Assembly: GCA_003650545.1 (NCBI GenBank)
Contig: QMQO01000001.1
Span: 4,845 to 68,844 of the forward strand
DNA: 64,000 nt
Direction: 5' to 3'
DNA from: Candidatus Woesearchaeota archaeon
GTDB lineage: Archaea; Nanobdellota; Nanobdellia; Woesearchaeales; B72-G16
Shown here: positions 2-30,136 of the stretch, in pieces
Layout: each line of letters begins with the position of its first letter
Numbering within the stretch: position 1 is the stretch's first letter
The notes under the pieces: model-generated
Seen by the model: the letters and a program-made list of their open reading frames with translations, nothing else
What the model was told of the DNA's origin: nothing
Databases searched by the model: none
Program-made: the position numbers and the translations under genes

Positions 2-265
2 GAAGTTGTGTTCTATAAGGTCGAACCAAAGGATGTAACAAGGGAGCGGCCAGAAGAGTGTAAAGATAAACCATGCATGTGCATATATGCAAAAGCAGGA
101 TATGGCTACAGGTGTGAACGCTTTAACTTTGATCTGACGTTTGCATCTGGCTTGGTTAATATACCTGGACAGACAGAGATCCAGCAAACATTGGTTAGTT
201 TCCATAACACCCGAACGATAGTTTTAAATAGGCATAAAGAAACGATCGAGATAGATGTAAAATAG
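2..265 (+). CDS. C-terminal part of a cluster protein (gene continues upstream of window); Cys motif domain paralogous to product of 4325..4969
   Basis: Frame is open to the window edge (the track start is an internal GTG). The ECKDKPCMCIYAKAGYGYRCERF segment and the following beta-like segment align by eye with RCKGNACMCLMRSSGVSFDCKIY of the 4325 gene. The stop lies 8 nt before the next start. Confidence 0.5.
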   Translation, partial: EVVFYKVEPKDVTRERPEECKDKPCMCIYAKAGYGYRCERFNFDLTFASGLVNIPGQTEIQQTLVSFHNTRTIVLNRHKETIEIDVK

Positions 266-272
266 ATGTAAA

Positions 273-1190
273 ATGAGGCTAAGAAGGCTTGAAAAAAGCG
301 GTGGTACTTTTACGATTGAAACTCTGGTTTATCTGATATTGATGGTGATGACTTTTGCTATTCTTGGAAGCTTTCTCGTAAATGTTGGCGAGGGTGGTAA
401 ACAAGCAGAACGTGATCAGATCTGTAGAACATCTGCATTGTTGAATGCAAATACAAAAACTTTTGGGGTTGATCTTTTCTATCTTGACTGTCCACAGCGC
501 TTGGTGAGAATCACAGAGAAGGATGTTACAAAAAAAGCTACTAAAAATGAGAGAAAAAAGATAAGCGAATATGGCTATAGTGTTGACTGGGATAACCAGA
601 AAGAACTTGCAGGATATAGAACAGATGCAATTATTGCTAAAGAGATGTATGATTGCTGGCGCTTGCTTGGAGAGGGTAAGCTGCCTTTGTTTGGCCAGTG
701 GGCATATGATAGTATAGCAGAGAGTGATAAGGCTGCTAAGTGGAAATTATTCTTAGAGATGTTTGAAAAACAGCTGGCTTATGTGCAAGGTCTTGAACAG
801 GCAGATGTTATGTGTGTTATATGCTCGAGAATAAAGTTTGATAAAGAAGTTAAGGAAATGGTTAAAGAAGATAGAGATCTGACAAAATGGCTAAAATCTC
901 ATCCAATACCAAGTGAAGAGAAGGTGATGAGTTATTATGATTATCTGACAGAACTCCTTGCTCCTAAAACAAAGTTAATCCCATATAGTTATAATACAAA
1001 GAATCCGCTTGCAATAGTTTATGCTAGAGTCAATACAGGGTATCTAACTAACTTGGGAAATAGAATCTGGTCGGTTCTAACTGAAGGAATCTCTGCATCA
1101 GTCCAGGGAAGTTTTTATGATGGTGTTTCGATTATTGCCATAGCACCTTACTCTGATGCATTAAGGAATTGTGATCATATTGCTAACTGA
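273..1190 (+). CDS. pilin-like (class III signal) N-terminus protein, function unknown
   Basis: N-terminus is MRLRRLEKSGG/TFTIETLVYLILMVMTFAILG. This is a basic leader, then Gly, then a hydrophobic helix with Glu at +5, as in the G/FTLIE prepilin motif. No recognisable domain afterwards. Confidence 0.6.
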   Translation: MRLRRLEKSGGTFTIETLVYLILMVMTFAILGSFLVNVGEGGKQAERDQICRTSALLNANTKTFGVDLFYLDCPQRLVRITEKDVTKKATKNERKKISEYGYSVDWDNQKELAGYRTDAIIAKEMYDCWRLLGEGKLPLFGQWAYDSIAESDKAAKWKLFLEMFEKQLAYVQGLEQADVMCVICSRIKFDKEVKEMVKEDRDLTKWLKSHPIPSEEKVMSYYDYLTELLAPKTKLIPYSYNTKNPLAIVYARVNTGYLTNLGNRIWSVLTEGISASVQGSFYDGVSIIAIAPYSDALRNCDHIAN

Positions 1191-1192
1191 AA

Positions 1193-1348
1193 ATGAAAAT
1201 GAGAAAACTTAAAAAAAAAGCAATAGCATGGCCCTACCTCTTAGCGCTCATATTGGCAGCCATGTTAATAGTGGTGCTAGCGATTCTATATCTGAAGGGC
1301 GGCTCTAAACTGGGAGATGTTTGGAATAGCTTACTAGGCAGATTTTAG
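1193..1348 (+). CDS. small single-pass membrane protein (51 aa), hypothetical
   Basis: Below the track cutoff. ATG lies 3 nt after the previous stop. Product MKMRKLKKKAIAWPYLLALILAAMLIVVLAILYLKGGSKLGDVWNSLLGRF has a basic leader plus one TM helix. Confidence 0.35.
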   Translation: MKMRKLKKKAIAWPYLLALILAAMLIVVLAILYLKGGSKLGDVWNSLLGRF

Positions 1349-1514
1349 ATTTGCTAAAGTTTGAATATTGCTGTGCTCTGCTGAGTTGCTGAGGGTTGCT
1401 GAACATTGTTGAGGCTGCTAAACCTCGGATGTTGTTGAGTTGGTTTTTATGCAAATACCAAAAAATCAGGAAAGATATAATCAAGAAATGATATATAATC
1501 CTGAATAATATCAT

Positions 1515-1575
1515 GAGAATAACGAGAATAACAAGAATAAGAAAATAATGAGAATAATGAGATTAATGAGATAAA
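1515..1575. repeat. about 7 tandem copies of a 9-nt unit (GAGAATAAC and variants) ending at the start codon of the 1576 gene
   Basis: Read directly: GAGAATAAC GAGAATAAC AAGAATAAG AAAATAATG AGAATAATG AGATTAATG AGATAAAATG. Confidence 0.8.
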
Positions 1576-2973
1576 ATGGTTGCATTAAAAGAAGTAAAAA
1601 GTGCTGTACTTCTGGTGATTGTGTTAATTGTGGTTGTAGCATTGGTTTTTCCAGTTATAAGGGATACTGTAAAGGAAATGTTAGGTTATCAACTGCCTGA
1701 ACTTGAAAGTCCTGTGTTTGCACCAGAAGAGCAACAAACTTCAGTTAGATGTACTGCAGAGGCAATCGCGTTTGCTGCTGATTTTTTAAGCAATCCATCA
1801 AAACAACGTTTTAATGAGGAAAAAAAGAGATGCGGGTGTGAACTTAGGCATAGATGCGAGGATGGTGAAAAAATCGGCTGCAAGGATGGGGTAGCATTCG
1901 GTCAGATCTGTCTGAAATGGAAATATTTGAAGATTAAAAAAATGGAAAATGGCGAATCTGTGACCACAGGCCATAACATCATGAAATTGGAAAATTTGGT
2001 GCTGCCACAGGATGTTAGTTTGTCCCAGCAGGTACTAACCGAGTTTGCGCCTAGATACTGGTTTACCTCAACTACAAAAGGACCAAAGTTTTTAACTTAT
2101 TATGAGCATTTTCCAGAGGATGAAGCTGCGTCATGGGTTATTGCTAAGTCTAACATTGATATGTCCCCAAATATGTTCTCAAGGGTGAATGATCTCTATC
2201 AGGCGATGGATGAAATGTCTCAGGCGTCACGTGTTTCTGAGGATACTCTAGGATTAATAGAAATAACCCCTAATTTTTATGCAGGACTTGCAGACATTTG
2301 GGAGCCTATATCCTTAGAAGCAAGGTCAGGGAATATGCCATTTATGATGGGCATGATTATAAAAGATCCAAGTATTAAAATAGAAGGAAAGATTGCTTTT
2401 TTTTCTGTTCCATTCTATTTAGCAAGTCCGTGCAAAACCGATGCAATCATGGTTTTTGCAAGATGTAAATGCGATCTTCCTGCAAAATCAGATATGCCCA
2501 TATTTCAAAAAAAGATAAAATTAGATGGTGAAGAATATTCCATCCCATATAGAGGTGTTAAGTTAAAAGGACCAGTTCGCCCAAAAAATGGTATTTATGA
2601 AATTGAAGATGAGTCCCTAGCTGATTTTTCAAAAGCGTATAAGTATGGCTGTTATACTGGTTCTATATGGTCAGATGAAATATCTTTACCGTTTGTACAA
2701 TCTGTTTGTATGCTGTTCATTCCTGTAAACACAGACAAGTTCTGCTATACATCTTCGAGAGCCCTGGTCTATGGAGTATATCCTCAGTTAAAAGAACAAC
2801 TATCTAAATGGCCTGAAGGAGGACTTTTTAGCCAAATCTGGGGCGTCCTTAATAAAGAAGCGGCTGTTGATGCAGCAGGCAGATATAATGTACAATACTG
2901 GCCAGAGTCTCCATCAAGCTTTAATGAAGAGGAAATCAATAACATATTAAGTGAGTATTTCACTCAGCGTTAG
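1576..2973 (+). CDS. N-terminally anchored Cys-rich extracellular protein, function unknown
   Basis: N-terminus MVALKEVKSAVLLVIVLIVVVALVF is a single N-terminal TM helix. Long ORF with many Cys and no recognisable motif. Confidence 0.55.
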   Translation: MVALKEVKSAVLLVIVLIVVVALVFPVIRDTVKEMLGYQLPELESPVFAPEEQQTSVRCTAEAIAFAADFLSNPSKQRFNEEKKRCGCELRHRCEDGEKIGCKDGVAFGQICLKWKYLKIKKMENGESVTTGHNIMKLENLVLPQDVSLSQQVLTEFAPRYWFTSTTKGPKFLTYYEHFPEDEAASWVIAKSNIDMSPNMFSRVNDLYQAMDEMSQASRVSEDTLGLIEITPNFYAGLADIWEPISLEARSGNMPFMMGMIIKDPSIKIEGKIAFFSVPFYLASPCKTDAIMVFARCKCDLPAKSDMPIFQKKIKLDGEEYSIPYRGVKLKGPVRPKNGIYEIEDESLADFSKAYKYGCYTGSIWSDEISLPFVQSVCMLFIPVNTDKFCYTSSRALVYGVYPQLKEQLSKWPEGGLFSQIWGVLNKEAAVDAAGRYNVQYWPESPSSFNEEEINNILSEYFTQR

Positions 2974-2989
2974 CACTAAAATATTCTAA

Positions 2990-3721
2990 TCATACTAACA
3001 TAAACAAGATCCCCTGTTTAAGATCTTCTTTCTCCAATCCTGTAACATTACCTACAAAAATCTTCTCTGTTATCACTGGTGTATCAAACCTCTCGGTTCT
3101 GTCTTGTATCTTGTTCAGGTAGATTCCATCTGCAACTATTCTGTTTTCAGAAAAATCAAATGGTTGTTTGATAGAATGATTTTTACCATAGATTATCAAT
3201 GTTGTTCCTTTCACATCTCTTTTCCAGTCGCTATCTAAAAAGATATAAACATATGGTTTTCTGTTCTCAAATGTCTCGAACATATAAATCTCACTTATGC
3301 CATTATTGGGTGTTAGTTCTCTGGTTAGGCTAAAATTATACCAATGAAACGGTTTTCCAAATGCAAAACCCCTGACATCAAAAGCAAAGCTGCCTTCAGG
3401 ACCAGTGTATTGCTGGAACACCATTCTGTATGCTTTCATGTTGCTGTAACCTTCAATGTTAATAGTGGAAACACCGTCCTTTGTGATTACTAGGTTATGG
3501 TTGGGCATCTCCTGAATCACTATTATAATTGAAACTATTATTATAGCGATAATCACAACATATGTCAGAATAGGTATCAAAGGGCTTTTCTCGATGGCTT
3601 GCTCTATTGCTTTGTTGATGATCCTGTCAGAATAACCACGCTTGCGCATCCTCTGCCTAATAGTAGCAAAAGAATAGTTATTTTTTAAGAGCTTCCTTAC
3701 TTCTTTTTTCAAGCTGTCCAT
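2990..3721 (-). CDS. membrane-anchored hypothetical protein (small cytoplasmic helical N-domain, one TM, extracellular domain)
   Basis: 243-aa ORF. N-terminal KRGYSDRIINKAIEQAI segment is followed by the TM helix PLIPILTYVVIIAIIIVSIIIVI. It is the only opposite-strand gene inside the cluster. Confidence 0.55.
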   Translation of the reverse strand: MDSLKKEVRKLLKNNYSFATIRQRMRKRGYSDRIINKAIEQAIEKSPLIPILTYVVIIAIIIVSIIIVIQEMPNHNLVITKDGVSTINIEGYSNMKAYRMVFQQYTGPEGSFAFDVRGFAFGKPFHWYNFSLTRELTPNNGISEIYMFETFENRKPYVYIFLDSDWKRDVKGTTLIIYGKNHSIKQPFDFSENRIVADGIYLNKIQDRTERFDTPVITEKIFVGNVTGLEKEDLKQGILFMLV

Positions 3722-4034
3722 AGGATAGATTTTTATTCAGAGATATTTATAATTTGTGGTTTATTATTCAATTTATTGATTGTTAGCTTGTTTTTTTGGT
3801 TTATGCAATCTTTTACAATGTCTCGATGTCTTGAACATCTTGAATATTCGTTGAAGATAAAAGATAGTTGACAGTTTTGTTTGTGATAGTTTTGTGATAG
3901 TTTGGGTATAAGGTCATAATAGTATATACTTATAAAACCATTTTAAGAAGGAAGATATTTTAAGAAGTTATAGTTCTCATAAGAAGGTTATAAAAACATT
4001 TATAAAAACAAAAAATATATACTGTGAAGAGGTG

Positions 4035-4328
4035 ATGATGCTGAAGAAATCGCAAGGTTTAGCCCTGAGCACTCTAGCAATAGCTGTTCTGGTTATCATT
4101 ATTATTGTGGTTATAGTTGCTTTGATTATAGGCTATGTTGGTAATTGGAAATCTTCGGTTAATATCTCTAAAACTGCAGTAGCTAAAGCTAATTGTGAGA
4201 ATTTCTTGCGTCCAGAAAGAAAATGTATGCGCCAGTGTCCAGATGGATGGGTAGAGGTTGCTATAACTGCTGAGGATTGTGAAGGATATAAATGCTGCGA
4301 ACCTGTTGCTGCAGAAAAGAAAAAATGA
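4035..4328 (+). CDS. small pilin-like protein with Cys-rich C-terminus
   Basis: N-terminus is MMLKKSQG/LALSTLAIAVLVIIIIVVIVALIIG. The short ectodomain has CxxxxxxxxCxxxC and CEGYKCC. A GAGG sequence lies just upstream. Its stop overlaps the next start (ATGA). Confidence 0.6.
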   Translation: MMLKKSQGLALSTLAIAVLVIIIIVVIVALIIGYVGNWKSSVNISKTAVAKANCENFLRPERKCMRQCPDGWVEVAITAEDCEGYKCCEPVAAEKKK

Positions 4329-4969
4329 AACTAAAAAAACCATACAGAAGATTTTCACAAAACAAAAAAGGCATCACTCTTACATTAGAGGAAGTCATAA
4401 AGCTAATTCTTGTAACAATAGTCATTATAATCATTGTTATTCCAATGGGCCGTTTTATCTGGAGGATGATGCTGAAATCACCTAGCCCGGACATGATGAA
4501 CAGTTACAAGAGACTTGATTCAGAGATAAGGGATATAGAACAGGGAGATGTTGTGACAGTGCCAATAAAAACAAAAGCAGGGGAACCATTCCATATAAGA
4601 TTTTATACAAAATCAGATGGATATTCTCGTTGCAAGGGAAACGCATGTATGTGTCTCATGCGGAGTTCTGGTGTTTCTTTTGACTGTAAAATATACAAGG
4701 GTACAAAAGGGTATGTTGATTTTAAACTGGAGGATGGCAATGAGATAAATCCTGGTGAGGTTAGGCATGTAACCATCAGAAGAGACCCAGAGAAGATAGT
4801 TATCAAGATTAGTGCTGCGTCACAACTGTCTGCAGCTGGAGAGAAAAGCAAAGAAGGTGAAGCAACTGCGTCAATAGAAACAGGTTTGGGAATCGAGGGT
4901 ATGTCAAAAGGAACAAAGGCTGGCTCTTGGCAGTGGGTTGGTAAACAGATTGTTGTGACACCACCATAA
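4325..4969 (+). CDS. pilin-like N-terminus protein with CxxxxCMC domain
   Basis: The ATGA overlap with the previous gene makes 4325 the likely start, rather than the track start at 4292. N-terminus is MKLKKPYRRFSQNKKG/ITLTLEEVIKLILVTIVIIIIVI. The C-domain is paralogous to the partial gene at 2..265. Confidence 0.6.
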   Translation: MKLKKPYRRFSQNKKGITLTLEEVIKLILVTIVIIIIVIPMGRFIWRMMLKSPSPDMMNSYKRLDSEIRDIEQGDVVTVPIKTKAGEPFHIRFYTKSDGYSRCKGNACMCLMRSSGVSFDCKIYKGTKGYVDFKLEDGNEINPGEVRHVTIRRDPEKIVIKISAASQLSAAGEKSKEGEATASIETGLGIEGMSKGTKAGSWQWVGKQIVVTPP

Positions 4970-5119
4970 AAACACAAATAAGAAATTAAATATAAAAATA
5001 TAAAACAATAAAAAATTAAAAGTAAATAATAAAAAATAATAAAAAAATAAAATATAAGTAAAAATAGATTCATCATAGAGGTGTTGAATTTTAAATTACT
5101 TGAAAAAAAGAATAGAGCG

Positions 5120-7153
5120 ATGAAACAAAAACTTTTTATGATTGTGTTTTCAGTTTTGCTTTTGATAGTACTGGGTTTATCTTATGGAAATGAACGCGAC
5201 TGTCCGGATGGATGGACTTATGTGCCAGATGGTTATGAATATCATGGAGAGACTAAGCACTGCTTGGGGCCAGTTTTCGAAGAGGATAATAGATGCTATT
5301 GGCAACAGTATAAATGTTACTGTGATGCAAACGAGTATTGTAGTTTTGGACAATACTGCCTAAACCAAAAATGCGTTTCAGAAGAGAATGTGTTTAACAT
5401 AGGCGATAAAATAAAGCTGAACATAAACACCAATCCTGATAAGGATGTTGAGATCTTGATTACAGAAAAAGGACCAATTCTAAGATTGTTGCATGACGAA
5501 CAAGATATAGTCGACTCTAAAAAGGTTTATAAGGAAGGTGACTCTCTAAGAATAGCAGTTAATTATAAAGGTCATTTATTCTCATTGTATTTTAAGGATG
5601 GCGTTTTTCATAAAGTGATTGAAAAGGTTAATTTTGGTTTTCTAATTTCGGTTGATGAAGATAAAGACGGAAAATTATTATGTGGCGACAGGTATATCTA
5701 TGAATATAACAATGGTGATCCACAAGATTACAAGAGGTATATAATTGTGTTTAAGCAAGGTAAGGATAAGTGTGAGGTCAAGGGTTTTTATAGAGACGAT
5801 AAAGAAGGCGGTGGTGGTGAAACTTCTTGGTATTATGATCCTGGCGACAAGCCAGTGTCAATAAATGATGATAGTAATCTTAGAGAGTTAAAACAAAAGT
5901 TTTATTCTTATGATTTTGTTGATGTAACAAATGATGTTGCTGCTATGCTTTTTGAATTAGATGACAATAGAGAGGTTATTAGGAACATACCAACAGAGAC
6001 AACAGAGACAACAGAGCCAGGAGCGCCAAAGGAAATTGAAGGTAAAAAAAAAGTTTATTTATGTAAGAATGCTGTAGATGATTCTGACATTTGTACAATA
6101 TATCTAAATATATGTAAAGATGAAGAGTATGAGAATTCTTACAATAGTTTTGAAGAATGCTTAGAGGCAAGAGTAGGGAGAGAAAAGGCGAAGTTTTATT
6201 TTTATTTTGTTAAGGATGTTAATTGGGAAGATGATGATGAGTTTCGGGAGTTCAGCAAAAAAAGTTTTGAGTACCTTAAAGATGTTTTGAAGAGGTCAGA
6301 TCCAGAAGCATACGATCTATTTTCTCAAAAAATTGAAGCAAAATATATAACAGACTTAGATGTTGATTGCGCTGAGCTAAAAAAAGCAAGGGATAAGAAA
6401 ACTTTGTTAAGATACATATCATATCATGAAGATGATATTGATAATCTACCATCACAGCGCATACCATATAAGGTTATTTGTGTTAAGGATACTTTCTATA
6501 AAGAATATATTAATCCAAATGAACCTTATTATGGGGAACCAGACTGTGAAACCTATGTAATAGGAACAACCTGGCTATATAGTTCTGTGATCTTTATATC
6601 TCGTAGACATCCTGATCCATTTAAGTCTCAAGTTGAACACATTGATACACTGGCTCATGAATTTGGTCACTCGATGGGGTTTTGTGATGAGTATGCTTGG
6701 AAAACATATCGGGACTCTGATATCTCTATGTCCGGTCTACTTTGGCATATTGGATGCCCAAATGAATTTCCTCCTTGTTGTGAACGTGTCTTCTTTCCAT
6801 ATGAGAATTATATAAAAAATGTTAACGCTGAGATGATTAAGAAGATTAAGGAATTTAAAAAATATGGTTTTAACTGTGTGGCGTCTCAAGACTTTGACCC
6901 TAACCCTGATTTTCCATATAGATGTGATCACAATATGAAGTGTGGTGTTTATCATATTGATCCTTATTGTGCTGGATATCCGTTTGGAAAACCAGAAGAA
7001 AAAATAAGAAGTATTATGGGTATAGGGAAAGTACGTCTTGATCCCGAATATATTATAGTGTATCCTACCCCTATAGTACCTTCTGAGCAAGGTAAGAAAG
7101 GCACAACATTAGCGAATTATGTCAGATTAAAAGGAATAGGTGTCTTTGGATGA
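5120..7153 (+). CDS. secreted Cys-rich zinc metallopeptidase (HExxH; M64-like HEFGHSxGxxDEY motif)
   Basis: Sec-type signal MKQKLFMIVFSVLLLIVLGLSYG. Catalytic-looking motif TLAHEFGHSMGFCDEYAW. Many Cys throughout. The family call is from motif memory only. Confidence 0.6.
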   Translation: MKQKLFMIVFSVLLLIVLGLSYGNERDCPDGWTYVPDGYEYHGETKHCLGPVFEEDNRCYWQQYKCYCDANEYCSFGQYCLNQKCVSEENVFNIGDKIKLNINTNPDKDVEILITEKGPILRLLHDEQDIVDSKKVYKEGDSLRIAVNYKGHLFSLYFKDGVFHKVIEKVNFGFLISVDEDKDGKLLCGDRYIYEYNNGDPQDYKRYIIVFKQGKDKCEVKGFYRDDKEGGGGETSWYYDPGDKPVSINDDSNLRELKQKFYSYDFVDVTNDVAAMLFELDDNREVIRNIPTETTETTEPGAPKEIEGKKKVYLCKNAVDDSDICTIYLNICKDEEYENSYNSFEECLEARVGREKAKFYFYFVKDVNWEDDDEFREFSKKSFEYLKDVLKRSDPEAYDLFSQKIEAKYITDLDVDCAELKKARDKKTLLRYISYHEDDIDNLPSQRIPYKVICVKDTFYKEYINPNEPYYGEPDCETYVIGTTWLYSSVIFISRRHPDPFKSQVEHIDTLAHEFGHSMGFCDEYAWKTYRDSDISMSGLLWHIGCPNEFPPCCERVFFPYENYIKNVNAEMIKKIKEFKKYGFNCVASQDFDPNPDFPYRCDHNMKCGVYHIDPYCAGYPFGKPEEKIRSIMGIGKVRLDPEYIIVYPTPIVPSEQGKKGTTLANYVRLKGIGVFG

Positions 7154-7863
7154 AACAATTAAATCATTGGAAAAAACAAACAAAAATTGGTGTGTGTATT
7201 TTGATTTTTCTATTTTTTGTTAGTCTTGTTTGTGCAGACAAAGCTTTCTTTGTGACATTGAAATTTTATAATCCTGCTCTAGGAAATGATTCTGTTGAAC
7301 TCTTGGGCTATAGTGTTGGCTATATCAATCCCTGGCCTGACGAACCAAAATCTGCAGATTATCAGATTCGGCTTTATGATAGTCACGGAGATTTGATATC
7401 TGAAAGAAATCATCAGGTGATTTTTCTTTTATTTGGGAGATTTGTCAGAGAATTAAATCAAACGATCTCGATAATCCCAATGAAATATTCCAGAGACATT
7501 AAACATATACAAGTCTATAGAAAAGGAACCTTATTGCTATCTAGAAAAATAACTGAACTTTGTAATGGCAATGGATTTTGTGATGGCAAAGAAAATTATT
7601 ATAGTTGTAGCACAGATTGTAAAAGCTATTCAGCAGACGGTGTTTGCGTACCTGTAGGTGATTTCGTGTGCGATCCTGACTGTTTACAGGGTACAGATCC
7701 TGATTGCTATAAGGTTAAACCAATTGAGGTTTCACACAGGCCAATGGAGGTGTCAGCAGAAGTTGAAGAAAGATTCAATGTCTGGATAGCAATTGCTTTT
7801 TTAGCGTTTATGTGTGCGTTACTCTTGTCGTTCTTATACTACAAGAGACGCCATGCTAAATAA
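7150..7863 (+). CDS. type I membrane protein with Cys-rich ectodomain, function unknown
   Basis: ATGA overlap with the metallopeptidase gene. N-terminal signal ends ...FLFFVSLVCA. Cys cluster CNGNGFCDGKENYYSCSTDCKS. C-terminal TM WIAIAFLAFMCALLLSFLYY is followed by KRRHAK. Confidence 0.55.
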   Translation: MKQLNHWKKQTKIGVCILIFLFFVSLVCADKAFFVTLKFYNPALGNDSVELLGYSVGYINPWPDEPKSADYQIRLYDSHGDLISERNHQVIFLLFGRFVRELNQTISIIPMKYSRDIKHIQVYRKGTLLLSRKITELCNGNGFCDGKENYYSCSTDCKSYSADGVCVPVGDFVCDPDCLQGTDPDCYKVKPIEVSHRPMEVSAEVEERFNVWIAIAFLAFMCALLLSFLYYKRRHAK

Positions 7864-8280
7864 AATTATTTTGACATTGTGTAGGATTAATTGTAGGATT
7901 AAGGCTTTACTCAATTAAGGTGTTAATTAATGATTAAATTTGATAATTGAGATTACATGAATCTGAAAAATGCTTGAGAAAGATGAACTGTACATCATGT
8001 TAGGATTGGAGATTTGTGCAGATGTTCTTGTTAGACGATATAGATGTTGAAGGGCTGTCGAAGGACAGAGTGCTTGATAAAAAAACAATATAAAAAATAA
8101 TATAAAAGAAAAAAATAAAAATGGCAAATGGTAATATAAATAGTACTATGATAGTTTGCACAAACAAAAGCTTTATAAATGATTGTTCATTATTCTAAAC
8201 AACTGTATGAAATTTGAACGATTGTTCAATTTATTGAACATTTTTTTAAAAAGATGTGTAGTCTAAAAAAGGAGAGAATC

Positions 8281-8529
8281 ATGTTTAGAGAATTTGGGTT
8301 GCTAAAACCTTTTCTGGATAATCCTGGTGAAGAGTATCATCTTCGTGAGTTGGCCAGAATGCTTAGGAAGAGTCCAGCTACAGTTGATAAGAATCTTGAA
8401 GTGTTCGTTAAAGCCGGTGTTCTTAATAAAAGAAAAATGCGAATGTATACTCTCTACTCTGCTAATGAGGCTAACCCTTTTTTTAGAGAGATAAAGCTGT
8501 TTTATAAAAAAATGAAGAAGGTGTTTTAA
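8281..8529 (+). CDS. small winged-helix DNA-binding protein (putative cluster regulator)
   Basis: The segment YHLRELARMLRKSPATVDKNLEVFVKAGVLNK looks like a wHTH recognition region. GGAG lies upstream of the ATG at 8281. The stop abuts the next start. Confidence 0.5.
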   Translation: MFREFGLLKPFLDNPGEEYHLRELARMLRKSPATVDKNLEVFVKAGVLNKRKMRMYTLYSANEANPFFREIKLFYKKMKKVF

Positions 8530-9576
8530 ATGAAGCGCACAAGGAATCGGCCAAGGAATCTGCTAACCTCAAGAAAGGGAACAATGCAGCAGTTGATCTG
8601 GGAGCCCTTGATGCACCTAATCTTAGTGTTTGTGATAATATTCCTGCCGCTGCTGGCTTATACAGCAGCTATAACAAATGACACTATGTTTGAGAAGAAG
8701 TTCTATGCGATAGATACTGCGTTGATGTTGGAGACTTTGTATGCTGCTCCAGGAAGTGTTTTGTTTGATTATGGTGAAAAGAATGTACAACAATTTAGTT
8801 TTGATTTCAGTCAGCACAAAGTAGAGGTTTTTGATAGAGAAAAATCTGGCAAAAAGCCTCCAAAGTATCAGATAATGTATTTTAATGTTATTGCAGATAA
8901 TAATGTGCCATTTGTGCAAAGCTCTGTTGATAAACAACCTCTAGTTTTTCTCAAGTCCGATGTTGTTGGAGTGAATCTTGAACCCAGCAAATACCAAGAA
9001 AGCTTTTTAAAACAGACACCATGCAGCATTAAAGATTATAGAATTACTGGTAAAGTTGTTTTTGATTATGAGAGGCTTGCAGAAGAAGAATCGCCTGTTT
9101 ACACAGAAGTTGCTGGAACTGAGAAAATGATGAGCAATAGCGATCTAAATGCGATAATGGAGTCAGCAATTATGTTAAGGCTTAATGATGCGGATGAAGA
9201 TTATTTTTCATTAAAATATTCTACTGGCTCTGGAGTGGGTTACGAGTATACTATTGAGCAGCTTCCAGAGCATGACTTGTTTATAATGTTTAAGGTTTCA
9301 GACTTGAATAAAATATATTATAACGCTGACAAGGAAAAGTACGCGAAACTTGCATGCCTATTACAGAAAGAATTCGGCTATATAGCTTCACCAAAGAAGG
9401 GTGTTGATGGTGTAGAGATTAATTTTGCTAGAACCAGGTTTGTTTACTCTACACTGGATGAAAAAAATGCGATTGTTAAGGACTTTATAAATGATGTTGT
9501 GAGCAAGACCACAAAAGCCATTGAAATGTTTTTCGGTGGGGAGGAAGCTGAGAAAAAGGGAACTGAGTTTGAGTAA
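8530..9576 (+). CDS. pilin-like N-terminus protein, function unknown
   Basis: N-terminus is MKRTRNRPRNLLTSRKG/TMQQLIWEPLMHLILVFVIIFLPLLAYTA. It is followed by a roughly 300-aa soluble domain with no recognisable motif. Confidence 0.5.
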   Translation: MKRTRNRPRNLLTSRKGTMQQLIWEPLMHLILVFVIIFLPLLAYTAAITNDTMFEKKFYAIDTALMLETLYAAPGSVLFDYGEKNVQQFSFDFSQHKVEVFDREKSGKKPPKYQIMYFNVIADNNVPFVQSSVDKQPLVFLKSDVVGVNLEPSKYQESFLKQTPCSIKDYRITGKVVFDYERLAEEESPVYTEVAGTEKMMSNSDLNAIMESAIMLRLNDADEDYFSLKYSTGSGVGYEYTIEQLPEHDLFIMFKVSDLNKIYYNADKEKYAKLACLLQKEFGYIASPKKGVDGVEINFARTRFVYSTLDEKNAIVKDFINDVVSKTTKAIEMFFGGEEAEKKGTEFE

Positions 9577-9804
9577 AAGTAAAAGGCTAAGTTAAAATGA
9601 GAAAACCAAAATGATAAACTAAAAAATGCTAAAAACTAATGATGGTTAAAAAATAAGAAAAAAAATATGATTAAAAAATAAGAAAAATAAGAAAAAATTT
9701 GAAAAAATACAAAGAAAAGAAATCAAAAAGCAAGCTAATAAAATTGTATAGAAAGTATAAAAGATTAAAAAAATCAAGAAAAAAATGAAATTAAAGGAAG
9801 AGAA

Positions 9805-10308
9805 ATGAAACTGTTGAAAAGTAAACGAGGAATAACCGAGTTAGTGATGAAGTGGGTAGTAAGACTTATAATGGTGGTTGTAGTGTTATTTGCACTTAAC
9901 TTTATACTACAAAATGCTTACAAACAAAAACTAGACTATGGATGTCTGAGGGCAGATGTGTTGACCTATCGTTTAATGTATGGAAAAAATTTGATGATGT
10001 ATACTGATGATGTGACAGGCAGAGTGTATACCGGAATAATTGATTTAGAGGAGTTTAGAAAAAAAAATTTACTAGATGATGCAATGGGTGGTGGTATCAC
10101 GACTATCGCGATAGAAGCTTTGTTGAAGTATAAAGATGAGTCTGGTGAGGATAAAACAGAGAGTTTATATTTTAATAAGGATTTTTACGAGACAGTGAAA
10201 AGTTCTACTACGAGAAGAAATCAGCATCTTTTTTTTGTGAAGGTCAAAGATGGTGATAGGTTCTATGATGGTATTTTAGATATAACTGTGTTTGACTTTT
10301 CAAGATGA
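9805..10308 (+). CDS. small pilin-like protein
   Basis: N-terminus MKLLKSKRG/ITELVMKWVVRLIMVVVVLFALNFIL. Size (167 aa) is typical of a pilin subunit. The 4-nt overlap with the next gene suggests coupling. Confidence 0.6.
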   Translation: MKLLKSKRGITELVMKWVVRLIMVVVVLFALNFILQNAYKQKLDYGCLRADVLTYRLMYGKNLMMYTDDVTGRVYTGIIDLEEFRKKNLLDDAMGGGITTIAIEALLKYKDESGEDKTESLYFNKDFYETVKSSTTRRNQHLFFVKVKDGDRFYDGILDITVFDFSR

Positions 10309-10730
10309 TACGAAAAATGCATAAAAAAGGTATTTCGGAGATGTTTATGTTAGTGGTGGTTATATTCATCTTGTTTGCTTATTTCATGATATTCTTTTCA
10401 ATAATAGGTTTGACATTTGAGGAGAATAAACGCGAAATCAAAGCAGAGTTTTCTGCAAAGTTCAACGAAACAAATTTTGTAAATATATTGCGTGCTGGTA
10501 CAATTTATGGAGATTTTGCAGAGCTAATTGCTTTTGCTTGTTTTGACGGGAATTATGAAGATAAGTTGGGGAATGTAAAAGACAGACTTGTAGATAAAAA
10601 TCTCTTTAAAGCTATGTCAATTAAATGTGATAATGGAAAAAATATTGACTATGGTGCAGGTTTCCGGGGTTATAGGATTCAAATTCCTTCATTGAATAGA
10701 AAAATAATAAATGTGTATTTTATAAGCTAA
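10305..10730 (+). CDS. small pilin-like protein
   Basis: N-terminus MIRKMHKKG/ISEMFMLVVVIFILFAYFMIFFSIIG. Product is 141 aa. Confidence 0.6.
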   Translation: MIRKMHKKGISEMFMLVVVIFILFAYFMIFFSIIGLTFEENKREIKAEFSAKFNETNFVNILRAGTIYGDFAELIAFACFDGNYEDKLGNVKDRLVDKNLFKAMSIKCDNGKNIDYGAGFRGYRIQIPSLNRKIINVYFIS

Positions 10731-10770
10731 ATTAAGATTTGTAAGCTGAACAAAAGGCTAAAGAGCTAAA

Positions 10771-12225
10771 ATGAACAGAAAAGCAGCAATAGGGTTGTTT
10801 GAAGTTGGCTTTATGATGGTTGTTGTTCTATCACTGACAATAATGTCTGTTGCTTTGTTGAATAAGATAAACAAAGTGCATGTTATTGGTAAAAAACAAG
10901 CTGCATTGATTGAAGCTTACAAAGAAGGGGAGAAGACGCTGCTTTATATAGATGAAGCTACAAGTCTGGCTGCAAAGCAAACTATATATGACCTGGCAAA
11001 GTTGGCTGGCTTCAACCTACCAAAAGAATGTGGTGCGTATCTTGGTGTACCAAAGTGGCATGCACCTAGATGGGAAAATGGAAAATTCAAGGGAATGCAA
11101 TACTGTGAACCTGAAACAGAAGAGTTAGAAAATGACTTTATCAAAATGTTTAACTTAGCGTTTGCAGAGTATGCAGCTGAATTTTCCAGTAAAAATCTGC
11201 ATGTTAAGGTTCCGTTAGATAATCACGATATTGTGCTTATGCCAATTGAAAATAAAAATTCTATGGATATAATAGGTATTTCAAAGAAGCCTATACTGAT
11301 CAGTATTTTAAAAGATGCTATTGGCGCTGACACAGCAGGCTTGCTGAGGAAAACAACAATTAATGTAGATAGTGTTGATTATGATGTGGTGGTGTTGGCA
11401 GGAGAAACACATGAAGATGTAGTAAAAACAATATCACTAGATCTTGTAAAATGTTATAAGGATTCAAAAACAGATCCAAATGCTTGTAAGAATAAGCGGT
11501 ATATTGTGCGTAATGAGGTCACTAAAAATGATATAGAAGAATTCTTGAGTGATGAAGAAAATTTAATTAAAAACAGTATTGACAAACAGACTGCAAAAGA
11601 GCTTATAGGGAATAAATATTTTGTCTTTCCTACAACACAAATAACAGACGATAAAATTGAAACAAATTATATTTATGATTTCAAGGTTGAAAGAGGCAGG
11701 GTTACAGTGTCTCGTTCAAAACAGCTGCCTCTGGTGTGGCCAACAGATTATAATGTGGTAACCTCTTGTTATGGAAACAGAAAAATTTCTGGAAGAGCAA
11801 GCAAATTCCATAGAGGAGTAGATATCAGAGCAGGAGCCGGCGATAATATATACGCTATTGCTGATGGGAGTGTTACTTATGTTGGTTGGAAGGGAGGATA
11901 TGGAAATACTGTTCAAATTGATCATGGTAATTTTGTTTCGCTATATGGACATAATAAAGAGATAAAAGTTAGGAAAAATCAGAAGGTTAAGGCAGGCGAG
12001 GTGATTGCTCTTGCAGATAAAACTGGCGTGAGCAAAGGAGATCATCTACACCTTTCGATATATGTTGATGGAGAAGCCAAAGATCCTCTTGAATTTTATA
12101 TGCAACATCTCGGTAGTTTAGACGTGCTGGGACTGAGATTTGTAAAAAGAAGCAATTGCGTATACTATTTGGAAAAAAACAAATATGCGTATGCAGATTA
12201 TATTGAAGCAAATCAGGTAGGTTAA
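10771..12225 (+). CDS. M23 family metalloendopeptidase (peptidoglycan endopeptidase type) with pilin-like N-terminus
   Basis: C-terminal KFHRGVDIRAGAGDNIYAIADGSVTYVGWKGGYGNTVQIDHGNFVSLYGH...GDHLHLSIYVDGEAKDP carries the HxxxD and HxH zinc motifs of M23. N-terminus is MNRKAAIG/LFEVGFMMVVVLSLTIMSVALL. Confidence 0.85.
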   Translation: MNRKAAIGLFEVGFMMVVVLSLTIMSVALLNKINKVHVIGKKQAALIEAYKEGEKTLLYIDEATSLAAKQTIYDLAKLAGFNLPKECGAYLGVPKWHAPRWENGKFKGMQYCEPETEELENDFIKMFNLAFAEYAAEFSSKNLHVKVPLDNHDIVLMPIENKNSMDIIGISKKPILISILKDAIGADTAGLLRKTTINVDSVDYDVVVLAGETHEDVVKTISLDLVKCYKDSKTDPNACKNKRYIVRNEVTKNDIEEFLSDEENLIKNSIDKQTAKELIGNKYFVFPTTQITDDKIETNYIYDFKVERGRVTVSRSKQLPLVWPTDYNVVTSCYGNRKISGRASKFHRGVDIRAGAGDNIYAIADGSVTYVGWKGGYGNTVQIDHGNFVSLYGHNKEIKVRKNQKVKAGEVIALADKTGVSKGDHLHLSIYVDGEAKDPLEFYMQHLGSLDVLGLRFVKRSNCVYYLEKNKYAYADYIEANQVG

Positions 12226-14490
12226 ATGAAAAAACATCTGATCAGGAATGGAATGTTTGTACTGCTAATGTTGATAATGTTTGGCGGAATGATTTTGTGG
12301 TTTACAGAAGACAATGGCTCTAATCAGGTTACAGGAATGGTTGATTTGAACAAAGATGCAATTGATAGAATCGCACAATACGATGACATCATTAAGAAGG
12401 CAGCTCACAAGTTTAACGTGCCAGAGAGTTTGATCAAGGGCACTATTTATGTAGAATCTAGAGGAAATTATAAAGCAATATCAAAAAGGCCCGCGTATGA
12501 GGGCGGTGGTTTGTGTGGAGCAGTCGGCCTGATGCAATTAATGCCTTTGACTGCGTATAAGTACGGCAAGGATTATGGTTTAACAGTTCTATTCGAAGAT
12601 TCTCGTGATGCAAAATGTAATCCTGCTATGGCAAGAAGGTTGTACGATGCGATTCAAGGAAAGAGTGACGAAGATATCTTTCGGATGGATAATCGTTTCG
12701 ACCCTGAAAAAAACATCTATGCTGGAACTAATTATTTGGCTTATATGCTTCATACAAAATATGCAGGTGACCCAGAAGCTTACGCAAAAACAATGATAGA
12801 ATATAATTCTGGTATCTCCTGTAAAGAAAAAACAGTTGAAGAGTGTCGTGCTAGTTTAACAAAACAGACAAGTGATTATTTTGATTTTGTGTTGGATGTT
12901 ATAAGTGAATATGAAGGTGGCATCTTGCCAATCTCGGTCGCGCCACCAACCTATGCAAGCTATGTCAATAGAATCTATGAAACAACAGGCGTCTATCTGG
13001 TAGATCCATCTTTTAGAACCAGAGTAGATTTTGACTTTGGGGTTTATAAAAAAGCATTTGAAGAGTTTAAGAAGGTTGAAGAAGTGTGCGGGAAGTTCGA
13101 TAAGCAGAAAAAGTTTGACGATTGCGTAAAACAAGAAACAGAAAAGCTTGGTGGAGGTCTCAGGTGGGGTGTGGTTGGTGATGGTGTCAGTGATGAAGAC
13201 AAACTGATTAAGTTTGCAAAGCAGTACGAGCAATGCTTATCATCTTTAGATCATTTTTGTTATTGCGATCTTGATGTTCCTGACGGTTATGAGATCTATA
13301 CTGAGCAGGAAGCTCAGAACGAAGACGGTTTCTACAGATTTAAGTTGTTGAAGGATGGTAAAGTTGTTTATGCTAATAACGATTATGGGGTAATTCACGC
13401 ATTATGTATATATTCAAATCATAAGATAGAAAAAGTAAACAACCTTAGATTAAGCGATAATAAGGTTGTTGTTGGAAATAAAAATGAAGAAAAAGATGTT
13501 GATAGACTCAGAATGGTTAAATACATAGATGATAACTATGAGTTATTATCGTGTATAAGCGTAGAAAAACAAAAGCCTTTGGATTTACATGAATGCAGAA
13601 AAGCACCTATAAGAACCGCACTCATAAAAGCGAAAACAGGCCTTAGCTTATATGTGTCGGATGGTGTAAATGTTAAAGAAGAAGAGGTAGTCATAAATTT
13701 TGCTTATGATATTCCTGACGAGGTTGGACCTTCAAATGAACTGGCAATCAATGCTATAGATGAGTTTAGGGCTGAAGGCTCGGTTATGTTGAGTTGGCGA
13801 GATTCCCCAGACACAGACACAATAAAATATCTTGTTTATTATGGGAAAGGTTCTGTTTCTATTACAGAAGAACAAAACCCGCAACTAGAGGTTGTTGTTG
13901 CTGATATTCCTGAGAAAAATCTTTATTATGATTTAAGTGAAGATGCTAGGCCTGTTAAAGATAAACCAAATGAATTTGTTGTAGAACGTGTACCAGGCAG
14001 AGCTGATGACATTTCTCTAGAACATAATGAACCATATTACTCTTTCAAAGATAATAGGTATCATGTTATTATAGACAACTTAGAGGATGGTGTAGAGTAT
14101 AGCTTTGTAGTAGTACCTGTAGATATTTGGGGCAACAAGAATTTAGTTGTAGAAGAAGGCAAAAATATGATTAAAATTATACCTGAAGATGATTTACCTC
14201 CTGCTGCAATAGATTTCAGTGTTGCTTCAGATGGAACCGTTGCTTGGAATGTTGATTTAAAGAATTTAAAGAATGATGATGGTAGCGAGCTAGTAGATCT
14301 TCAGAATGTCTATGTGTATGAGAGTCCTAAGCCTTTTAGCTATATGGATATACCGAAAATGAATAAATATCGCACTCCAGTAAGTGGAAAGATGTATAAG
14401 GCGAGTAAGGGTCGTTATGTGGCTGTTGTTGCCAGAGATGAAACCGATCATGTCAGTAGATATATAAATATGATCTTATTAAAAAAGTAA
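12226..14490 (+). CDS. soluble lytic transglycosylase (SLT/GH23) domain protein with C-terminal FN3-like repeats
   Basis: The region PESLIKGTIYVESRGNYKAIS...AVGLMQLMPLTAYKYG...YAGTNYLAYML matches the SLT catalytic Glu-Ser and GLMQ motifs. C-terminal segments such as SVMLSWRDSPDTDTIKYLVYY and YSFVVVPVDIWGNKN look FN3-like. N-terminal anchor is MKKHLIRNG/MFVLLMLIMFGGMILWF. The start abuts the M23 gene stop. Confidence 0.85.
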   Translation: MKKHLIRNGMFVLLMLIMFGGMILWFTEDNGSNQVTGMVDLNKDAIDRIAQYDDIIKKAAHKFNVPESLIKGTIYVESRGNYKAISKRPAYEGGGLCGAVGLMQLMPLTAYKYGKDYGLTVLFEDSRDAKCNPAMARRLYDAIQGKSDEDIFRMDNRFDPEKNIYAGTNYLAYMLHTKYAGDPEAYAKTMIEYNSGISCKEKTVEECRASLTKQTSDYFDFVLDVISEYEGGILPISVAPPTYASYVNRIYETTGVYLVDPSFRTRVDFDFGVYKKAFEEFKKVEEVCGKFDKQKKFDDCVKQETEKLGGGLRWGVVGDGVSDEDKLIKFAKQYEQCLSSLDHFCYCDLDVPDGYEIYTEQEAQNEDGFYRFKLLKDGKVVYANNDYGVIHALCIYSNHKIEKVNNLRLSDNKVVVGNKNEEKDVDRLRMVKYIDDNYELLSCISVEKQKPLDLHECRKAPIRTALIKAKTGLSLYVSDGVNVKEEEVVINFAYDIPDEVGPSNELAINAIDEFRAEGSVMLSWRDSPDTDTIKYLVYYGKGSVSITEEQNPQLEVVVADIPEKNLYYDLSEDARPVKDKPNEFVVERVPGRADDISLEHNEPYYSFKDNRYHVIIDNLEDGVEYSFVVVPVDIWGNKNLVVEEGKNMIKIIPEDDLPPAAIDFSVASDGTVAWNVDLKNLKNDDGSELVDLQNVYVYESPKPFSYMDIPKMNKYRTPVSGKMYKASKGRYVAVVARDETDHVSRYINMILLKK

Positions 14491-14691
14491 AATGAATAAT
14501 AAAATGAATTTTTAAAGCGCATATACAATGAGCTGGTTTTGCTAATTTTGGGTTGAAACTAAATAGAAATAGGATGTCTTTAAAATTAGAGATAAAATGT
14601 TTTTTTGATGTGTGTTTGATGTATGGACCTTTCTTAATAAAATTTTTAAAACCAAAATAAAAACAAGATAAAAATAAGATTCAAAATAGAT

Positions 14692-14967
14692 TCACGCAAA
14701 TGAACCCACTATACTAACTACGCTGCCAATTACAACTGCTGTTATTATAACTATAGCTACTCCAATTGCTATACCAACTATACTACAAACCAAACCAGCA
14801 ATTGCCATTCCCTTTCCTTCTGCTTGTCTTGCTTTGATCTTCTTCAATGCAACTAATGATAACACTAGGCCAACTATTCCGCAAATAATTGCGATAAACC
14901 ATGCCCAAGAAAATACTATGGACACTATACCTAGCACCATCCCTGCAATAGCCAATCCTTTTCCCAT
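14692..14967 (-). CDS. small integral membrane protein with internal duplication (DUF4190-like)
   Basis: Two repeats, GKGLAIAGMVLGIVSIVFS... and GKGMAIAGLVCSIVGIAIG..., each followed by a hydrophobic helix. Confidence 0.55.
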   Translation of the reverse strand: MGKGLAIAGMVLGIVSIVFSWAWFIAIICGIVGLVLSLVALKKIKARQAEGKGMAIAGLVCSIVGIAIGVAIVIITAVVIGSVVSIVGSFA

Positions 14968-15082
14968 TGTTTATACCTCCTTTTTTTGAGTTATTAGTGA
15001 AGAATAATTAAAATAATATTTAAAATTTGTGTAAAGTTGCTATAAGAATTAACAGAATTAACATATTTCTCTTGTCCATTAT

Positions 15083-28573: not shown

Positions 28574-28821
28574 GGTTTTATTCTGTAATAGAACATGAAG
28601 AAAGTAAAAATCATTAGTGCTAAAACTAAACTTAATGTGATTATGAATAGTTTTTTATCAGTGCTAAAGCCGAATGGAATAAAACCAATCACGCCAACTG
28701 CAGACACCTTGACATTGCTCTCTTTGTTTTTTGGTAGTAACAAAGAGCTAGCCATGAGAATGATTATTCCTAAGAATATTACCACAATTCCAATAAATGT
28801 TAGCTGGTTTTGTGTTATCAT
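28570..28821 (-). CDS. small polytopic membrane protein, hypothetical
   Basis: 83 aa with three hydrophobic segments. It converges on the adhesin gene with a 4-nt overlap. Confidence 0.45.
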   Translation of the reverse strand: MITQNQLTFIGIVVIFLGIIILMASSLLLPKNKESNVKVSAVGVIGFIPFGFSTDKKLFIITLSLVLALMIFTFFMFYYRIKP

Positions 28822-28864
28822 TCTAATTGGATTTTTTTATCTTAATAAGTATTTTTCCATAATC

Positions 28865-28874
28865 TTTATAAATA
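28865..28874 (+). promoter_or_regulatory. archaeal TATA box for tRNA-Val
   Basis: TTTATAAATA is centred about 27 nt upstream of the tRNA 5' end at 28897. Confidence 0.55.
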
Positions 28875-28896
28875 GGGTATATGTGCTATATAGAAC

Positions 28897-29068: not shown

Positions 29069-29171
29069 TTCCTAGAAAATTTTTTATGTAGTAAAAAAAA
29101 TGGCTTTAGAGTGCTTGAAAATGCAGACTGTCTTACTATCTTGTTTGTCTGCATCTTCTTTGCATCTTTAA

Positions 29172-30125: not shown

Positions 30126-30136
30126 TCTTCGGCTAA

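Follow-up and report, generated by a model that had tools for sequence, protein, structure and literature searches.

A window of 64,000 nucleotides from a Candidatus Woesearchaeota archaeon (contig QMQO01000001.1), the whole stretch analyzed here, carries at positions 2-14490 a tight, almost entirely + strand run of 15 open reading frames (ORFs). We read this cluster as the subunit-gene block of a type IV pilus-like system of the archaeal type IV pilus (T4P)/Tad class, with a rough probability of 0.65 as judged from its sequences and those of related loci. Membership of the cluster in a type IV pilus-like system is quite probable, and the two murein hydrolases encoded at its 3' end are somewhat favored to work with that system. 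It is doubtful that these M23 and SLT proteins are themselves filament subunits, at the tip or along the shaft. An earlier note had proposed a pilus- or pseudopilus-like subunit set in a DPANN archaeon. The proposal gained from the gene order of one distant relative, from machinery genes beside homologous clusters and from a hydrolase link recurring elsewhere, but it gained nothing from pilin models or fold comparisons. In the following, the genes after the edge-cut first gene are called W1 to W14, and L numbers denote loci.

W1 (273-1190, + strand) encodes a 305-residue bitopic protein with six conserved cysteines and a CVICSRIKFD motif, and it is a conserved core component. A scan of species-representative genomes with W1 returned 40 loci, all from Woese-, Pace- or Nanoarchaeota. 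A T2SSE (FlaI/CpaF-type) ATPase gene is present in 24 of the 40 and a platform-like gene in 30, at least one of the two being found in 31; among the loci with a full 10 kb upstream, two only lack both. In 26 of the 40 loci, the homologous cluster has an A24 prepilin peptidase gene on its downstream side. For example, L036 encodes downstream of its pilin-like run a type IV leader peptidase of 287 residues (14147-15010; PF01478, E = 4e-12, 46.9 bits against a cut-off of 26.5), and eleven consecutive ORFs of this locus start with M-x-x-K-[KR]-[GA]. The same N-terminal design, a short basic leader, Gly or Ala and a hydrophobic helix, is found in 223 of 288 ORFs after the W1 homologue in the W1-anchored loci, against 94 of 378 elsewhere (p = 6e-43). 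In L005, a distant W1 relative lies 6-8 kb downstream of genes for a 760-residue T2SSE ATPase and a 715-residue polytopic protein on the same strand, and the T2SSE ATPase is also present in L008 and L009.

The closest PDB matches of the ATPase are archaeal GspE (2oap, E = 4e-25), CpaF (8e-19) and FlaI (1e-17). Its family comprises at least 5924 clusters, with about 60% identity across metagenome-assembled genomes (MAGs) assigned to 'Nanoarchaeota/Nanoarchaeia/Woesearchaeota'. The platform-like protein (712-721 residues, 52-53% identical between loci) follows the ATPase and has nine predicted helices in a 2+4+3 pattern. As read from gene content, the canonical locus of this lineage, with ATPase, platform-like protein, 10-12 class III-type proteins and prepilin peptidase, would be a complete type IV pilus-like system. 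Two side observations concern these genes. The ATPase homologues P0052, P0057, P0058, P0081 and P0086 have about 1270-1280 residues and additional PF14528 (LAGLIDADG_3) and PF14890 domains, a pair which we take to be an intein, so that the ATPase gene appears to be intein-invaded in several lineages. In about 9 of the 40 loci (L016, L018, L022, L025, L029, L031, L045, L047 and L049) the best platform match is on the strand opposite to the W1 homologue, and to the ATPase where present, which suggests a recurrent local inversion.

The gene order of the cluster is conserved in L007, a 14.8-kb contig with a W1 relative, which mirrors it gene for gene. Four upstream pilin-like genes and small Cys-rich pilin-like genes are followed by W1, a 50-residue helix-only ORF and a large Cys-rich protein; then come a - strand gene, a small pilin-like gene, the equivalents of W6, W10, W11 and W12 and the start of a W13 N-domain homologue. 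Blastp gives significant matches for eleven collinear pairs, with 22-30% identity across most of their lengths and up to 42% in shorter N-terminal stretches. The L007 N-termini ahead of the hydrophobic helix are RKAQ, KKAQ, KKSQ and RKGQ. Conservation of the gene order in relatives, which the earlier note had named as a check, is thus present in a distant one with 11 collinear homologues.

The cluster is larger than its part in the window. The window corresponds to positions 5407-69406 of the source contig, a metagenomic contig of 106 kb (ENA ERZ1742239 NODE_118), to which L001 positions refer. The 5' end of the cluster is 5.1 kb ahead of the window on this contig, immediately preceded by a terminal Nol1/Nop2/Sun-like methyltransferase gene, and the upstream part adds six + strand genes with the same N-terminal design and one interloper, an exonuclease III gene. 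The whole unit has 21 genes over about 19.3 kb, with its 3' end at window position 14490, and its G+C content is uniform with the surroundings. The locus does extend upstream as had been predicted, but into more pilin-like genes and then the methyltransferase, not into machinery genes. Within the window, the earlier count of 14 ORFs becomes 15 with the 51-residue ORF at 1193-1348, while the single - strand ORF (2990-3721) was correctly noted. The described 4-nt overlaps (4032-4328/4325-4969, 5081-7153/7150-7863 and 9805-10308/10305-10730) and abutting junctions (8254-8529/8530-9576 and 10771-12225/12226-14490) are all present.

Eight N-termini had been quoted for the shared design. All of them read exactly as given, but the number was an undercount, with at least three more carriers: W2 (1193-1348, KKKA/IAWPYLL), W3 (1576-2973, KEVKSA/VLLV) and the edge-cut first gene (RRKKG/TIHVSL). 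Under a loose rule of [KR][GAS] followed by a 16-residue hydrophobic stretch within 10 residues, the design is found in 17 of the 21 cluster genes and in 5 of 53 other window ORFs (Fisher p = 5e-9). When two dubious matches, a Sec-like leader and an internal helix, are left out, 15 of the 21 remain (p = 3e-7). Each cluster product has one single N-terminal hydrophobic helix. Two details of the design did not hold. The acidic residue described a few positions after the Gly has no fixed position, and the 'Glu at +5' of the W1 product presumed cleavage after GG, whereas in the consensus of 154 W1-family members E or D comes immediately after K[G/A]. Of the 154 members, 142 have [KR][GAS] right in front of the hydrophobic core, with G at position -1 in 96 of them, A in 40 and S in 6; E or D stands at position +1 in 94. 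This conservation at position -1 would indicate a processing-type site, beyond what a positive-inside anchor needs. Outside the cluster, two large surface proteins also start with [KR][GA] and a hydrophobic helix, an 843-residue protein with a weak PKD match (32411-34942, - strand) and a 1560-residue protein with immunoglobulin (Ig) domains (23891-28573, + strand). The N-terminal design may be used more widely on the surface proteins of this cell.

The candidate major pilin is W5 (4035-4328, + strand), a protein of 97 residues with the N-terminus KKSQG/LALSTLAIAVLVIII and a small 6-Cys head, and a paralogue of the upstream gene at L001 4706-5116. Seven aligned homologues share a conserved N-terminal stretch of ~33 residues (KK[AG]QGLSLNTIIIAxLVILVLVV) and differ in their heads, a pattern that would be the usual signature of a major pilin. 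For W1, the AlphaFold2 model from a 127-sequence alignment reached a predicted local distance difference test score of 81 and a predicted template modelling score of 0.76, superseding a mediocre first run with 8 sequences (score of 65 in the former measure). The model has a continuous 46-residue helix (residues 15-60) and then a sheet of 4-5 strands with helical insertions, a mixed beta/alpha head. W1 has no Pfam or NCBIfam match and few close relatives, and a profile search gave 3316 representative clusters at E ≤ 1e-3. With six conserved cysteines, a CxxC in the CVICSRIKFD motif, no Pfam family and no fold match, the W1 family is a candidate new domain family.

At the end of the cluster are the two enzymes. 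W13 (10771-12225, + strand) consists of a class III-like N-terminus, a carrier domain (residues ~30-315) and an M23 metallopeptidase domain (residues 345-439; PF01551, E = 2e-29, 102 bits). Its zinc ligands HxxxD and HxH are intact, with FHRGVD and HLH aligning to the M23 peptidase of PDB 6jmx. W14 (12226-14490, + strand) has the N-terminal helix IRNG/MFVLLMLIMF, an SLT domain (residues ~55-190; PF01464, E = 5e-18, 65 bits) and a C-terminal region of ~520 residues. Its catalytic E-S and GLMQ motifs are intact as well, with YVESRGN and GLMQLMP aligning to the lytic transglycosylase of PDB 9vi7. Both enzyme calls of the earlier note therefore stand, with Pfam scores above threshold and intact catalytic motifs.

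The link between the hydrolases and pilin-like clusters recurs elsewhere. A homologue search with the N-terminal 319 residues of W13 returned W13 alone, and its relatives came through locus-based tblastn: the carrier domain was found in L007, L050, L051, L055, L057 and L060-L065. The C-terminal region of W14 is homologous to the ends of the terminal proteins of L055 and L064. A scan anchored on the W11 family gave 17 metagenome loci with the same neighbours. The terminal protein of L055 is a 1328-residue fusion of the W13 N-domain, M23, SLT and the W14 C-domain; that of L064 has a W13-type N-domain, SLT and the C-domain, and that of L057, cut by the contig end, a W13-type N-domain and M23. In L008, a Woesearchaeota MAG, the co-directional order is ATPase, platform, pilin-like genes, a 278-residue M23 protein, two more pilin-like genes and an SLT protein. 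There the M23 domain is carried on a W10-like N-domain (E = 2e-4), and the N-domain of the SLT protein is weakly similar to that of W13 (E = 0.004). A basic-small-hydrophobic, class III-like N-terminus is found in all six hydrolase proteins (this cluster, L008, L055 and L064).

Several results weigh against the pilus-like reading. No Pfam or NCBIfam model of a pilin, an archaellin or a class III signal matches any cluster product, so the curated models to which the earlier note had pointed gave zero matches. A strict FlaFind-type pattern, in the form we assume for it and applied by eye, would pass about one N-terminus only. Foldseek comparison of the W1 head with the PDB and BFVD gave no pilin or other fold at E < 1; a pilin fold had been looked for in this product, and what was modelled is the long helix with an unmatched head. 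A simple signal-anchor on a stalk would equally be expected to have such a long N-terminal helix. For the platform-like protein there is no match to T2SSF (Pfam), NCBIfam or the PDB. By Pfam and tblastn there is no ATPase, platform or A24 gene in the window, as the earlier note had said of the window, nor in the 5.4 kb upstream or the 10 kb downstream. As for the hydrolases, the complete terminal proteins of L050, L061 and L062 have the W13-type N-domain without an enzyme. M23 and SLT domains are absent from the 40 W1-anchored loci, with a weak SLT-like match in L027 (E = 6e-5) as the sole exception, and these domains are limited to L008 and a subset of the W11-anchored loci. Finally, the enzymes may be merely membrane-anchored, with a putative exit from the membrane.

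The three enzyme-free terminal proteins make the hydrolases an optional cargo, not a core part, and the W1-anchored loci without hydrolases make this cargo lineage-specific. Judging from these proteins, the hydrolases appear to be a cargo that can be exchanged on the conserved carrier domains encoded where the pilin operon ends. In the window, the machinery genes were searched with Walker A motifs, multi-helix ORFs, Pfam and tblastn. The ORFs at 35735-36349 and 39776-40426 were considered as multi-helix machinery candidates and rejected, as they have no GxGD-type motif and no Pfam match. The 10 kb downstream, read from another assembly, encode large Ig-domain proteins and no Pfam-detectable machinery gene. 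Since the machinery genes do not adjoin the cluster in this genome, the ATPase, platform protein and peptidase would have to act from another locus. This cluster is a detached and enlarged subunit block, a satellite of the machinery-linked system.

The zero pilin-model matches, the W1 head without a known pilin fold and the unlinked machinery genes are also what a surface toolkit without a filament would give, and several products (305-754 residues) are far above typical pilin size. In that case, the products would be ordinary signal-anchored proteins with the N-terminus inside and the domain outside, and co-expression would be the reason for their clustering. Retained on the archaeal membrane, the M23 and SLT enzymes would provide nutrients by digesting murein fragments or the walls of nearby bacteria, and the ATPase of the relatives would serve only a few true pilins. 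We consider this unlikely. Gly or Ala after basic residues is kept in 142 of the 154 W1-family members, runs of 10-12 consecutive M-x-x-K-[KR]-[GA] genes lie between the ATPase/platform pair and the A24 peptidase, and a small subunit has pilin-type N-terminal conservation.

A pseudopilus for secretion or positioning, similar to the Sulfolobus bindosome or a type II secretion system, shares all of the locus evidence with the pilus-like reading. It would be a short piston or scaffold, not a long pilus, by which enzymes and binding proteins are pushed or held in or beyond the surface layer (S-layer), with the hydrolases as cargo or stationary subunits. The many large and diverse subunits, beside one or two small ones only, agree with it, and class III signals on functional proteins are a hallmark of the bindosome (PMC4858521). 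No second retraction-type ATPase or secretin-like partner was seen, though none is expected in archaea, and sequence data alone do not separate this explanation from the pilus-like one. We regard the pseudopilus as quite unlikely.

Lytic transglycosylases such as BfpH, R64 PilT and VirB1 are encoded in bacterial pilus and secretion loci and open the wall of the producer itself. With this generally known pattern in mind, the M23 and SLT proteins could make way for the pilus through a murein-like layer of the archaeon, and bacterial-type envelope genes (signal peptidase II and PGA_cap) are indeed present in the window. This use on the archaeon's own envelope is very improbable: the window encodes an archaeal S-layer domain protein, no murein synthesis gene is found among the window ORFs scanned, most related loci do without any hydrolase, and according to published genome surveys the targets of these SLT proteins are bacterial walls (PMC8204110). 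The two envelope genes deserve mention on their own. Signal peptidase II (Peptidase_A8, E = 8e-34; 36367-36885, - strand) is a bacterial-type gene in an archaeon, and the N-terminus of the nearby PGA_cap protein (41648-42739, - strand) ends in a lipobox-like LLTAC. The pair is a hint of lipoprotein processing in the bacterial manner.

M23 and SLT domains are also common in phage tails and lysins, and a phage tape-measure protein ranks second (E = 1.5e-4) among the PDB sequence matches of the SLT protein. An integrated virus or mobile element encoding membrane proteins and lysis enzymes is scarcely credible nevertheless, and we take it as effectively refuted. A PHROG scan of ten cluster proteins gave no match for nine and one weak match (E = 0.0023) to a family of unknown function, the cluster contains no integrase or capsid gene, its G+C content does not differ from the surroundings, its chromosomal position by RPA and housekeeping genes is conserved in relatives, and W1 has no BFVD fold match. 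The nearest integrase gene lies about 9 kb past the cluster (Phage_integrase, 23272-23964, E = 1e-27) and is followed by the 1560-residue Ig-domain protein gene at 23891-28573. A Zot-like P-loop NTPase with an N-terminal membrane helix is encoded at 30137-31039 (- strand, E = 8e-6). The region 23272-31039 may be an integrated element.

For the type IV pilus-like system, we infer along the following lines that leaders are cleaved, that a filament is assembled and bears the enzymes, and that the target is bacterial. The N-terminal helix would take each product into the membrane, and the short Lys/Arg leader would be clipped after Gly or Ala by an A24 prepilin peptidase. A FlaI/CpaF-type ATPase on the nine-helix platform protein would then lift the helices from the membrane into a filament or a short pseudopilus. 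The bulk subunit is probably the small Cys-rich type, encoded at 4035-4328 and by the upstream paralogue, and the larger conserved proteins (the 273, 1576, 8530, 9805 and 10317 products) may be minor or tip subunits. The M23 endopeptidase of W13 would cut the peptide cross-links of murein and the SLT domain of W14 the glycan strands. An archaeal S-layer domain protein is encoded in the window, and for an S-layer archaeon without murein of its own the likely substrate of the hydrolases is the wall of a touched bacterium.

The archaeal T4P (Methanococcus Epd, Sulfolobus Aap/Ups and Haloferax PilA; PMC4858521) resemble the related loci in the FlaI/CpaF-class ATPase, the polytopic partner and the A24 peptidase, and in the many proteins with a short basic leader, Gly or Ala and a hydrophobic helix, including multi-gene 'minor pilin' sets as in Methanococci. 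In contrast to them, there is no recognisable arCOG or Pfam pilin family here, the ATPase of the related loci is unusually long (~760 residues), each locus has 10-20 pilin-like genes, many of them for proteins of 300-1300 residues, an acidic residue or Gln follows the Gly/Ala, and the subunit block in this genome is detached from its machinery. The published archaeal T4P census predates these genomes and did not cover DPANN beyond Nanoarchaeum-type genomes (PMC4858521). The Sulfolobus bindosome (Bas) also puts class III-type signals on functional extracellular proteins, sugar-binding there and enzymes here, and its class III-signal proteins rely on a dedicated T4P-like ATPase and membrane protein. 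Unlike the bindosome, the present system has murein hydrolase cargo on a carrier domain, shows no sequence relationship to Bas and has a putative assembly.

Bacterial modular pilins such as Streptococcus sanguinis PilB and PilC (PMC8179133) likewise join an N-terminal pilin-type segment to a grafted module. In our case the graft differs from one relative to the next (M23, SLT, both or none), the organism is archaeal and the pilin module is putative. The modular-pilin survey deals with bacteria only, and among the architectures it discusses there is one peptidase module (IPR030392) and no M23 or SLT (PMC8179133). The BfpH, R64 PilT and VirB1 loci also have an SLT gene inside a filament or secretion cluster. 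The archaeon, by contrast, is an S-layer cell with no known murein, and its SLT protein begins with a pilin-like N-terminus and occurs alongside an M23 peptidase or in fusion with one. In episymbiotic Saccharibacteria, another ultrasmall lineage, T4P mediate host contact, but through bacterial type IVa pilus machinery and with no hydrolase-bearing subunits described (PMC9894109, PMC11623550).

The novelty of the apparatus is less than had been claimed, because earlier papers list flaI/flaJ/flaK and large SLT proteins for Woesearchaeota (PMC5994134, PMC11606122, PMC8204110). The former genes are reported from most Woesearchaeota MAGs and were read as motility or adhesion genes (PMC5994134, PMC11606122). 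The latter are large extracellular SLT proteins of Woese- and Pacearchaeota (fam00969), proposed to bind or degrade bacterial walls (PMC8204110). They agree with W14 in lineage, SLT domain and proposed target, and the 12226-14490 product is very likely one of them; pili, class III-type N-termini, an M23 partner and a position at the end of a pilin cluster are not mentioned for fam00969 (PMC8204110). A literature search, incomplete in coverage, found no paper linking pilin clusters with M23 or SLT in DPANN. What is new is the join: the pilin repertoire is identified, and the murein hydrolases are terminal cluster members with pilin-type N-termini and a shared carrier domain.

The remaining genes complete the cluster. 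The edge-cut first gene (2-265, + strand) is the 3' part of a 167-residue pilin-like gene, of full length at L001 5168-5671, with its N-terminus RRKKG/TIHVSLRFVVILLL upstream of the window; it is a paralogue of 4325-4969 (blastp E = 1e-6 to 2e-8). W2 (+ strand, 51 residues) has little beyond the KKKA/hydrophobic helix, and equivalent ORFs of 44-50 residues follow the W1 homologue in L005, L007 and L008. W3 (+ strand, 465 residues) has a pilin-like signal and a Cys-rich ectodomain with 12 cysteines; its position in L005, L007 and L008 is taken by Cys-rich proteins of 469-1287 residues with weak sequence similarity (E = 0.004). W4 (2990-3721, - strand) is a 243-residue bitopic protein conserved in the cluster, as a 214-residue - strand ORF of L007 has the same position and orientation (blastp E = 2e-19), and the protein here has an extra N-terminal cytoplasmic segment of 45 residues. 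W6 (4325-4969, + strand, 214 residues) has the pilin-like signal NKKG/ITLTLEEVIKLIL and a 156-residue L007 homologue (E = 1e-5). W10 (8530-9576, + strand, 348 residues), also with a pilin-like signal, matches by blastp a 272-residue protein of L007 (E = 7e-9), a 144-residue protein of L005 (E = 3e-7) and the N-domain of the L008 M23 protein (E = 2e-4). W11 (9805-10308, + strand, 167 residues) starts with KSKRG/ITELVMKWVV and has homologues in L007 (E = 1e-10) and L008 (E = 1e-3). W12 (10317-10730, + strand, 137 residues) starts with MHKKG/ISEMFMLVVV, with an alternative start at 10305, and equivalent ORFs in relatives lie between W11 and the terminal proteins. The impression that the non-enzymatic domains are unrecognisable was right, as Pfam, NCBIfam and PHROGs scans gave nothing above noise.

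Three genes stand apart. W7 (5081-7153, + strand) encodes a secreted, Cys-rich protein of 690 residues with a Sec-like leader and the zincin motif HEFGHSMGFCD. It had been called a secreted HExxH protease and part of the apparatus. The HEFGH motif and the Sec-like leader are there in the sequence, but the support for an enzyme is a weak M6-domain match (E = 0.0035); Pfam gave no match and a PDB sequence search nothing useful. W8 (7150-7863, + strand) is an accessory Cys-rich, secreted protein of 237 residues with a C-terminal membrane anchor and no counterpart in the related loci examined (L005, L007, L008 and L009). The ORF lists of the same four loci contain no counterpart of W7 either, and no W7 sequence search was made against other loci. 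With W7 and its neighbour absent from those clusters, a protease component of the apparatus is not upheld, and both genes (5081-7863) look like local, accessory insertions. W9 (8254-8529, + strand) is a 91-residue cytoplasmic protein, and its label as a winged helix-turn-helix protein rests on sub-threshold matches (HTH_5, E = 0.0056, and others). It is a possible local regulator, judging from those matches.

The source of the window is a DPANN archaeon, as had been supposed. Archaeal markers occur across the rest of the window (aIF2-alpha, L44e, S27e, Nop10, prefoldin, GINS, PAC2 and an S-layer outer domain, and aIF6 and aIF1A, recognised by eye from their N-terminal sequences), and the proteins are named 'Candidatus Woesearchaeota archaeon' at NCBI, with DRJ17_ locus tags. 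As to the neighbours of the cluster, the exonuclease III gene (L001 3700-4470) lies inside the pilin cluster in this genome only. An RPA-like single-stranded DNA-binding protein is encoded directly after the cluster in relatives, together with RadA in L005 (L005 16418-19245; L064 13608-14633). These RPA, RadA and exonuclease III neighbours could reflect nothing more than synteny, or they could hint at a function connected with DNA. Directly upstream of the cluster, two relatives encode giant proteins with repeats of the bacterial thrombospondin type 3 family, TSP3_bac (L007 32-2323, E = 2e-23; L064 404-3442, E = 2e-17), and no such gene lies ahead of the cluster in this genome.

To our knowledge, no member of the Woese- and Pacearchaeota lineages found here has been grown in culture. 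The cluster ties the flaI/flaJ/flaK genes of MAG surveys, lineage-specific 'hypothetical' membrane proteins and puzzling bacterial-type murein hydrolases into one testable unit. It also defines several large unannotated families, W1 alone with more than 3300 representative clusters, which could yield profile models for DPANN pilus loci. Taken together, these genes suggest a type IV pilus-like machine with terminal proteins that cut the bacterial cell wall, and they hint at how tiny DPANN archaea could grip or breach bacteria. If this is true, bacterial partners are predicted for the lineages with hydrolase cargo. If the enzymes were filament subunits, the system would be an enzyme-armed pilus cutting both murein bond types at contact, an archaeal device to breach bacterial walls. 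The interchangeable cargo (M23, SLT, both or none) would then be a polymorphic, host-range-determining module, and the cluster would be direct genomic evidence of bacterial, not archaeal, hosts or prey for these DPANN archaea.

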